A DNA stretch of 64,000 nucleotides from Eledone cirrhosa. Its lineage: Eukaryota. The translations under genes and the position numbers were made by a program. The DNA lies in NCBI GenBank assembly GCA_964016885.1, contig OZ024751.1, positions 25,482,001 to 25,546,000 of the forward strand, in the 5' to 3' direction. The notes beneath the pieces are model-generated. The model was given only the letters and a program-made list of their open reading frames with translations, did no database searches and had not been told where the DNA came from. This document shows positions 835-1,030 of this stretch, piece after piece (the stretch's first letter is position 1; every line of letters starts with the position of its first letter).

Positions 835-836
<2 letters not shown>

Positions 837-1027
837 CGAAGGAAGTGTGGTAAGGAACCAGATGGACCATATCGCACCAGAGTACTCAATACTTAGGGTA
901 GTAGAGTGGGTAATAGGAAAATGTATGACCCCGACGGCAGAGCTCAAGCCGTTTCGACTGCTATTTCTGAGTCCAGAAATAGCCGTCGAAACGGCTTGAC
1001 CTCTGCCGTCGGGGTCATACATTTTCC

Positions 1028-1030
<3 letters not shown>
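835..1030 (-). mobile_element. PLE-like terminal fragment (AACGAAGG family) with 57-bp fold-back hairpin and half hammerhead
   Basis: Arms 913-969 and 974-1030, loop agtc. GAAA-cggc..gccg-TC on each strand. (TA)n on both sides. Five copies in the window. Confidence 0.75.

Follow-up and report, generated by a model that had tools for sequence, protein, structure and literature searches.

A short hairpin family resembling truncated Hydra-type PLE ends in Eledone cirrhosa turns at helix II of a half hammerhead

Penelope-like elements (PLEs) of the Hydra type target (TA)n, carry a hammerhead near their 3' end with a helix III of 3-4 bp, and occur in octopus (PMC8557442). The available passages of the same paper describe an inverted 5'-truncated copy, a tail on one side only and (TA)n targeting as typical of PLEs, and leave the origin of this arrangement unresolved. 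Work on PAc, a Poseidon element of Anolis, mapped the PLE tail to two RT start sites and found that the protein cuts and extends both target strands; ribozyme cleavage was not needed, and uncleaved RNA was the main template (PMC11167929). Head-to-head junctions can be palindromic, and self-priming has been proposed for them (PMC3846280). Hammerheads on opposite strands 100-700 bp apart have also been described, together with a U3-A8 core variant (PMC4209133).

The window analysed here, 64,000 nucleotides of the Eledone cirrhosa contig OZ024751.1 (GCA_964016885.1), is AT-rich, free of N and full of microsatellites and short repeats. Searches by blastn and by an nhmmer profile built from five main arms found exactly five copies of a short repeat in it (nhmmer E 1e-41 to 1e-47; best non-family match E 5.3). 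The positions named by the first-pass annotation (835, 4121, 35304, 39137 and 60082) thus all hold real copies, but the last copy lies on the minus strand, 60082 being the end of its return arm. Copies are about 140-210 nt long and embedded in TA microsatellites, with (TA)n bordering the tail side in all five and the other side in four; four of the five have a head-to-head hairpin layout. Copy A (835-1027, plus strand) consists of a tail of about 80 nt running from a long 3' end at (TA)n to a short 3' end (835..915, minus), a main arm holding the helix II 3' strand, GAAA (955-952), helix III, the UC site and GGGG (916..969, minus), and then the loop AGTC (970-973) and the inverted arm with GAAA at 988-991, ending with TTCC directly at (TA)n (970..1027, plus). 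In copy B (4121-4264, plus), tail and main arm (4121..4253, minus) have UU in the cleavage position and are followed by an inverted-arm stub of 10 nt (4255..4264, plus) that runs into a SINE from 4265, which resembles the SINE at about 625-750. Copy C (35304-35487, plus) belongs to the most diverged subfamily and has (TA)n on both sides; its tail and main arm are on the minus strand, its centre is at about 35433-35436 and its inverted arm is on the plus strand. Copy D (39137-39346, plus) has a tail (39137-39217) and a main arm (together 39137..39274, minus) with the longest 5' extent of the copies, to GTCCAG, followed by the filler ATGC, a 14-nt stutter (39279-39292), the spacer TTATA and an inverted arm to (TA)n (39275..39346, plus). 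Copy E (60243-60085, minus) has its tail at 60163-60243 and a perfect palindrome at 60085-60162, with a 4-nt loop (60122-60125) within AGCCGT/ACGGCT. B, D and E belong to one subfamily. A, C, D and E form long hairpins, folding as DNA at -44 to -68 kcal/mol; as RNA, single main arms folded no more stably than shuffled sequences (z -0.4 to 0.6). No ORF in the window adjoins any of the five copies.

Read on the strand opposite AACGAAGG, a copy runs through the helix II 3' strand, GAAA, a 4-bp helix III with a palindromic loop, UC (replaced by UU in B) and GGGGTC, followed by about 100 nt and then (AT)n, and the half hammerhead is present again on the return arm. A scan for this half hammerhead with at least 4 G-C pairs gave six sites in the window, all within A, B, D and E, and none of them has CTGANGA within 60 nt upstream. 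Copy C escapes the scan because the GAAA of its main arm is mutated to GAAG. The proposal that the copies keep GAAA, helix III, the site and GGGG is therefore right as to the motif, but not for this GAAG or for the UU of B; the absence of CTGANGA from all copies was confirmed. Among the features of a type I hammerhead that were tested, GAAA, helix III and a UH site are present, and CUGANGA 5' of helix II is absent. We agree that the motif is very likely a hammerhead remnant, as its layout is that of an intact hammerhead elsewhere in the window (19009-18971, see below) and of Hydra-clade PLE ends. No Rfam match reached gathering score in any part of the window, and copy D gave no hammerhead at E up to 10; the matches below gathering score were driven by microsatellites and hairpins. 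This leaves motif and position as the basis of the ribozyme reading. Lacking the core, the copies are predicted to be inactive for self-cleavage in cis. None of the five starts at the cleavage site, which means that the 5' end is not set by cleavage.

A second family in the window, F2, read as another Hydra-type PLE end, has one copy with an intact hammerhead (18878..19014, minus; CTGATGA 19009-19003, GAAA 18990-18987, GTA site 18971), which ends in (TA)n. Two further copies lie at 18754-18838 (plus) and 35156-35212 (plus); two of the three face each other tail to tail across a (TA)n tract. The sequence GTATTGAGT stands 37 nt after the cleavage site in F2 and 40 nt after it in the five-copy family, with 45 and 47 nt left from there to (TA)n. 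Over their whole length the similarity between the two families is not significant, since 58 and 67 of 1,000 shuffles reach the score. GTATTGAGT is the 3' strand of a small tail hairpin with the pattern CTCTRY-loop-RYATWGAGYAC, found at 882-906, 4168-4192, 18774-18793, 39184-39208 and 60172-60196, that is in A, B, D, E and one F2 copy; these five occurrences in the window compare with 0.04 expected and with none in 100 shuffles, for a pattern defined after the sequences had been seen. The same hairpin occurs in three of the six new Hydra consensi of PMC8557442, with an outer pair G-C for A-T: in Hydra-2_Amil and Hydra-2_Ajap it follows the hammerhead, and in Hydra-1_Ajap it stands at the start, the published consensi that bear it coming from coral and sea cucumber. 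The passages available from that paper make no mention of it.

The five-copy family thus resembles the Hydra-clade PLEs of PMC8557442 (Hydra-2_Amil, Hydra-2_Ajap, Hydra-1_Obim, Penelope-13_HM) in its (TA)n target, its helix III of 3-4 bp, a TATA soon after the cleavage site and the same tail hairpin, and Penelope-13_HM is listed there with a 5'-truncated inverted copy, as found here. It differs from them in having neither ORF nor CTGANGA core, in its length of about 140-210 nt and in a turn confined to helix II, and the five family motifs searched had no sequence match in the published Hydra consensi in the material available from that paper. In terms of Hydra features, (TA)n insertion, two fixed 3' ends and the inverted 5'-truncated copy (complete in four of five, a stub in B) are present, and the canonical hammerhead near the 3' end is absent, only its 3' half being found. 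Because of the (TA)n flanks, the second fixed 3' end and the hairpin in common with Hydra consensi, the family likely represents 5'-truncated PLE ends plus tail, with no linked ORF and nearest to the Hydra clade. Since the core is missing and the family has no linked ORF, we file the copies as putative PLE-derived truncated ends resembling Hydra-type ends rather than as proven members of the clade. A Naiad origin was also considered and ranked below Hydra. Naiad elements are (TA)n-targeting cephalopod PLEs with incomplete hammerhead cores, the 'HHR_half_core' of PMC8557442, but in those CUGANGA is present and GAAA distant, whereas our family lacks CUGANGA and retains GAAA with helix III; none of the Naiad matches listed in the available part of that source showed the tail hairpin.

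Other described systems share single traits with this family. The inverted pLTRs of Adineta vaga Penelope elements (PMC3846280) also have an inverted truncated arm, an optional tail on one arm and junction palindromes; they flank full ORFs at low copy number, have no link to hammerheads in the accessible passages, and differ in that the loop orientation in our family argues against plain self-priming. A direct pLTR made by a partial tandem was found in none of the five window copies. As in PAc, two 3' ends bound the tail, corresponding to PAc's two RT start sites; the PAc tail is 30-40 bp long compared with about 80 nt here, and inverted joints are not addressed in the part of PMC11167929 available. 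Non-LTR retrozymes (bioRxiv 10.64898/2026.07.22.740005) are likewise non-coding, PLE-related and derived from a type I hammerhead; as far as the accessible text goes, they form head-to-tail tandems with complete hammerheads, unlike the single head-to-head units with half a hammerhead seen here.

Arms were compared over 34 shared columns in the four copies having two arms. Mismatches to the own partner arm numbered 1 in A, 4 in C and 0 in both D and E, compared with 5, 8, 1 and 1 to the nearest arm of another copy. The observation that arm sequences differ among copies while each matches its own partner thus holds for all four two-armed copies, and when left-arm against right-arm clustering was checked the arms grouped by copy in all four. 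It does not extend to B, where the pairing covers 10 nt (4255-4264) before the SINE and there is no real arm. The two arms of one copy share subfamily and rare variants, and therefore both come from one template. Gene conversion, which had been offered as the means of keeping the arms matched, is not supported, since private changes differ between the arms, at three sites in A, one in D and four or more in C, and the copies give no sign that conversion is ongoing. Return-arm lengths do differ, as claimed, at the centre; the outer end is near-constant, with A and E ending at TTCC before TA, D one base earlier and C three bases earlier.

Placed on the coordinates of copy D, the inverted arm starts at 39274-5 in A, 39274 in B, about 39270 in C, 39267 in D and 39258-39264 in E. 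All five turns therefore fall within a 17-nt zone made of the helix II 3' strand and loop, on a reference that itself ended at 39274 and with only two control families for comparison. This agrees with the idea that turn-around positions follow the hammerhead structure: they cluster at helix II in all five copies. Four copies (A, B, C and E) have a loop in sense orientation and a return arm whose start lies 5' of the point where the main arm ends. A, B and D, which span two subfamilies, share one 5' boundary, the G of GTCCAG. As to whether the joints arose independently each time, no two copies have the same centre and the arms group by copy, which indicates that each joint was separately made or separately remodelled.

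Fold-backs occur in two other families of the window, which served as controls. One, PLE-like (41303..41899), has intact cores at 41498 (minus) and 41803 (plus); its head-to-head pair at 41402-41899 lies in (TA)n and turns about 120 nt upstream of the core. The third family (42514..42971) has intact cores at 42610 (minus) and 42780 (plus) and a head-to-head pair at 42514-42876, again in (TA)n, turning 85 nt upstream of the core. In both, one arm runs about 95-100 nt further than the other, each being a single instance. As these two families turn upstream of an intact core, and as fold-back is ordinary PLE structure, fold-back itself is not special to the ribozyme, and the unusual part of the five-copy family is its fixed turn position.

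The window contains further traces of such elements. Canonical minimal hammerheads number eight, against 0-2 in each of 20 shuffles, in a scan that tolerated helix II mismatches and still missed the F2 hammerhead, whose helix II is weak; a strict scan of the window allowing no helix II mismatch found none. A GIY-YIG remnant lies at 61498-61641 (Pfam E 4e-4, below cut-off), and together with the eight hammerheads it shows that other PLE-like families are present in the window. The broken endonuclease remnant can be followed over 61498-61854 (plus), with a hammerhead-like motif at about 61961-62000 that has GAAT for GAAA, and a copy related to this region is found at 43100-43194 (minus). An AT-rich minimal-hammerhead family has at least five cores (19664, 42610, 42780, 54989 and 62446), weaker matches being found at 20703 and 44296-44746, and a TA tract contains several of its decayed pieces. 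Two more GTCGAAAC motifs by (TA)n, at 45095-45050 (minus) and 59900-59860 (minus), have non-canonical or missing cores and are perhaps other PLE ends. At 41588-41712, the turn of the PLE-like control fold-back is a perfect 62-nt palindrome, after which the first 31 nt of the return arm are repeated twice more, a stutter like that of copy D. Elsewhere, a near-perfect 69-nt palindrome at 24939-25007 holds GACGAAACAG and has no (TA)n flanks, an open frame at 56780-57184 (minus) has an RPDIVV motif and no significant Pfam match, and 8634-10504 is a long minisatellite array whose unit measures about 54 nt. The RPDIVV frame may be the restriction-like endonuclease end of an R2/R4-type non-LTR element.

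Data from four of 19 listed sequencing runs were piled up on the tail and main arm of copy D (39137-39274). Matches were found in 17,000 contigs of run X1 and in 23,119 of 12.5 million RAD reads of run X17, both from one organism; two further runs, X9 and X4, gave only 2 and 3 matching records. As a rough inference from RAD data, which are biased, the family is very abundant, with tens of thousands of copies or more. Among the best-supported 13 of 326 loose ends, (TA)n joins before 39215 in X17 (3,403 reads) and X1 (89 contigs); another subfamily shows the joint at its matching site, before 39227, in 1,191 reads and 67 contigs. Two 3' ends of the family are thus fixed, each adjoining (TA)n: a long one at 39137 and a short one at 39215-39218; the return arms end at the short one, about 80 nt inside the long one. 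In the ten strand-switch joints listed, the main arm ends at 39176-39238, in some inside the tail, and the inverted arm starts at 39260-39274 in all ten; five of the ten were also seen in contigs. These joints are biased to short-stem molecules and may represent one-arm deletions that came later, or library chimeras. No variant fell at 39254-39257 or 39229-39237 among the best-supported 40 of 128 read variants. Read variants in helix III were considered as covariation and not counted, being mostly at CpG sites. Over 39137-39274 the X17 pile-up showed A>G at 18 of 45 A compared with T>C at 2 of 25 T (p 0.005), and X1 showed 8 compared with 0 (p 0.04), with no asymmetry between G>A and C>T in this pile-up; subfamily structure, RNA constraint and editing of the antisense strand are possible sources of the A>G excess.

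Behind 39260, 1,303 reads and 76 contigs continue without fold-back, in a sequence that can be aligned with the centre of copy A; 6,885 reads end at the AATT site (39268), which hides the upstream part. The upstream consensus covers 30 letters, with agreement of 0.8 and 0.62. With the helix II 3' strand it pairs at 7 of 9 positions, a weak signal (p 0.017 in one register and, by estimate, about 0.2 when the register is left free). At the place expected for the end of the core and G10.1 it has TAAT, and the remaining core would fall past the 30 letters. No parent carrying CTGANGA was found in the window or in this consensus. The upstream sequence would be compatible at most with the U3-A8 core variant described in PMC4209133, position 3 lying beyond the letters seen. 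The upstream read motif had five matches in the window at 2 mismatches, compared with 3.15 expected, none of them convincing, and a 22-nt motif of the family was absent from metagenome and viral contigs. With a 16-nt motif, 120 loci in sequence collections were recovered, none of which aligned over more than 30 nt, and these were taken as chance. The family motifs were also absent from the available supplements of PMC8557442, PMC13282606 and PMC8967140, in which line breaks can hide matches.

With moderate confidence, we propose that the copies are short ends of a Hydra-type PLE in which two cDNAs from one template were joined in the helix II zone at insertion, with CTGANGA lost as a by-product. 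By extension of the in vitro work on PAc (PMC11167929), the PLE protein would nick both strands of the (TA)n target, the long site starting one cDNA and the short site the other. Both would then stop at or near the GC-rich ribozyme fold, their 3' ends would anneal through short internal inverted repeats (helix II, or AGCCGT/ACGGCT in E), and the annealed ends would be sealed by end joining. Annealing followed by end joining would account for fillers, for the stutter of D and for either loop orientation. Fillers and stutters such as those in D and at 41588-41712 suit end-joining repair. The long hairpin would be eroded later, as in B. Such a two-cDNA route would account for loops of both orientations, for arms that match without conversion and for outer ends that are fixed, and it is favoured by the return arm starting 5' of the main-arm end in four of five copies and in all ten listed joints. 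Against it stand the tail of about 80 nt, where the literature gives 30-40 bp, the lack of an ORF linked to the family, and the failure to find a parent with CTGANGA in the window or in the upstream consensus, which has TAAT in place of the core's end.

It is possible, though we doubt it, that the turn was inherited: an old fold-back would have founded a non-autonomous hairpin element whose 55-bp stem captures cDNA ends, so that the position is not set by the ribozyme. RNA would then be copied from the tail, both arms regenerated from the 3' arm and only the centre remodelled. Such inheritance would fit the very high copy number seen in contigs and reads and the boundary at the G of GTCCAG, which is found in A, B and D and in three of the ten listed joints, which is also the edge of the reference, and which none of the nine arms in the window passes. 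It fits less well with five centres that all differ, even among B, D and E of one subfamily, with a multi-copy subfamily that runs upstream without folding back, and with the centre of copy A, which matches the upstream sequence at a mismatch position and at a filler base, as a natural helix II would.

The first-pass annotation had favoured snap-back of a single cDNA, which would start from the tail, stall in the ribozyme, fold on helix II and copy itself until it anneals to the target at TAT. We consider this unlikely as the main route. A snapped-back cDNA re-copies only what it holds and leaves its loop antisense, and only D fits, with the longest main arm, a filler and a nested return arm; in A, B, C and E the loop is opposite and the return arm starts outside the main arm, holding template that the main arm never reached, and the ten listed joints behave likewise. 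A later flip or deletion would have to be assumed in four of five copies. Loop flips can indeed arise after insertion by recombination between the arms, and the joints are a biased sample, and thus the evidence from loops and overhangs weakens snap-back rather than excluding it. The grouping of arms by copy also agrees with snap-back, self-priming at palindromic junctions has been proposed for PLEs (PMC3846280), and snap-back junctions occur with R2 proteins (PMC11204384).

Far less probable is a hairpin-type DNA element, MITE-like or fold-back, with arms matched by gene conversion and a hammerhead likeness due to chance. Insertion in TA, the lack of an Rfam hammerhead match and the presence of GAAA also in the loop of a plain 6-bp hairpin would agree with such an element, but the inverted repeats are not terminal, about 80 nt lying outside them on one side in all copies, the private changes differ between arms, and the tail hairpin and its spacing match PLE ends that bear intact hammerheads. 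Fold-back chimeras are a known sequencing artefact, and an origin in assembly or library preparation can be set aside almost entirely, given point differences between the arms and a joint of the short end to (TA)n that recurs in raw reads by the thousand and in contigs from another run.

The general fold-back architecture was largely known for PLEs, and the new part is the turn fixed at helix II: in the literature covered we found no report of PLE joints confined to the hammerhead helix II, and subscription papers, Repbase, Dfam and bioRxiv supplements may hold the family. Returning to the two-cDNA route, we tentatively extend it to a reading in which helix II is the joining signal: two cDNAs, each primed on a different strand of a TA target, would pair through it and so behead the ribozyme, and the resulting 200-nt hairpins would now make up a non-autonomous family that regenerates itself and numbers tens of thousands of copies, with the arms rewritten from one template at each jump. 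PMC8557442 lists the way in which PLEs come to form inverted structures among the open questions, and an abundant family with a 17-nt joint zone, two fixed 3' ends and arms from one template could discriminate between snap-back, priming on two strands and inheritance through features that can be read from genome sequence alone, namely loop orientation, arm overhang and the sharing of centres. The tail hairpin, also conserved in Hydra-clade elements, may be a signal that the RT recognises, and the hairpins of 40-55 bp, if transcribed, would be a large source of double-stranded RNA.
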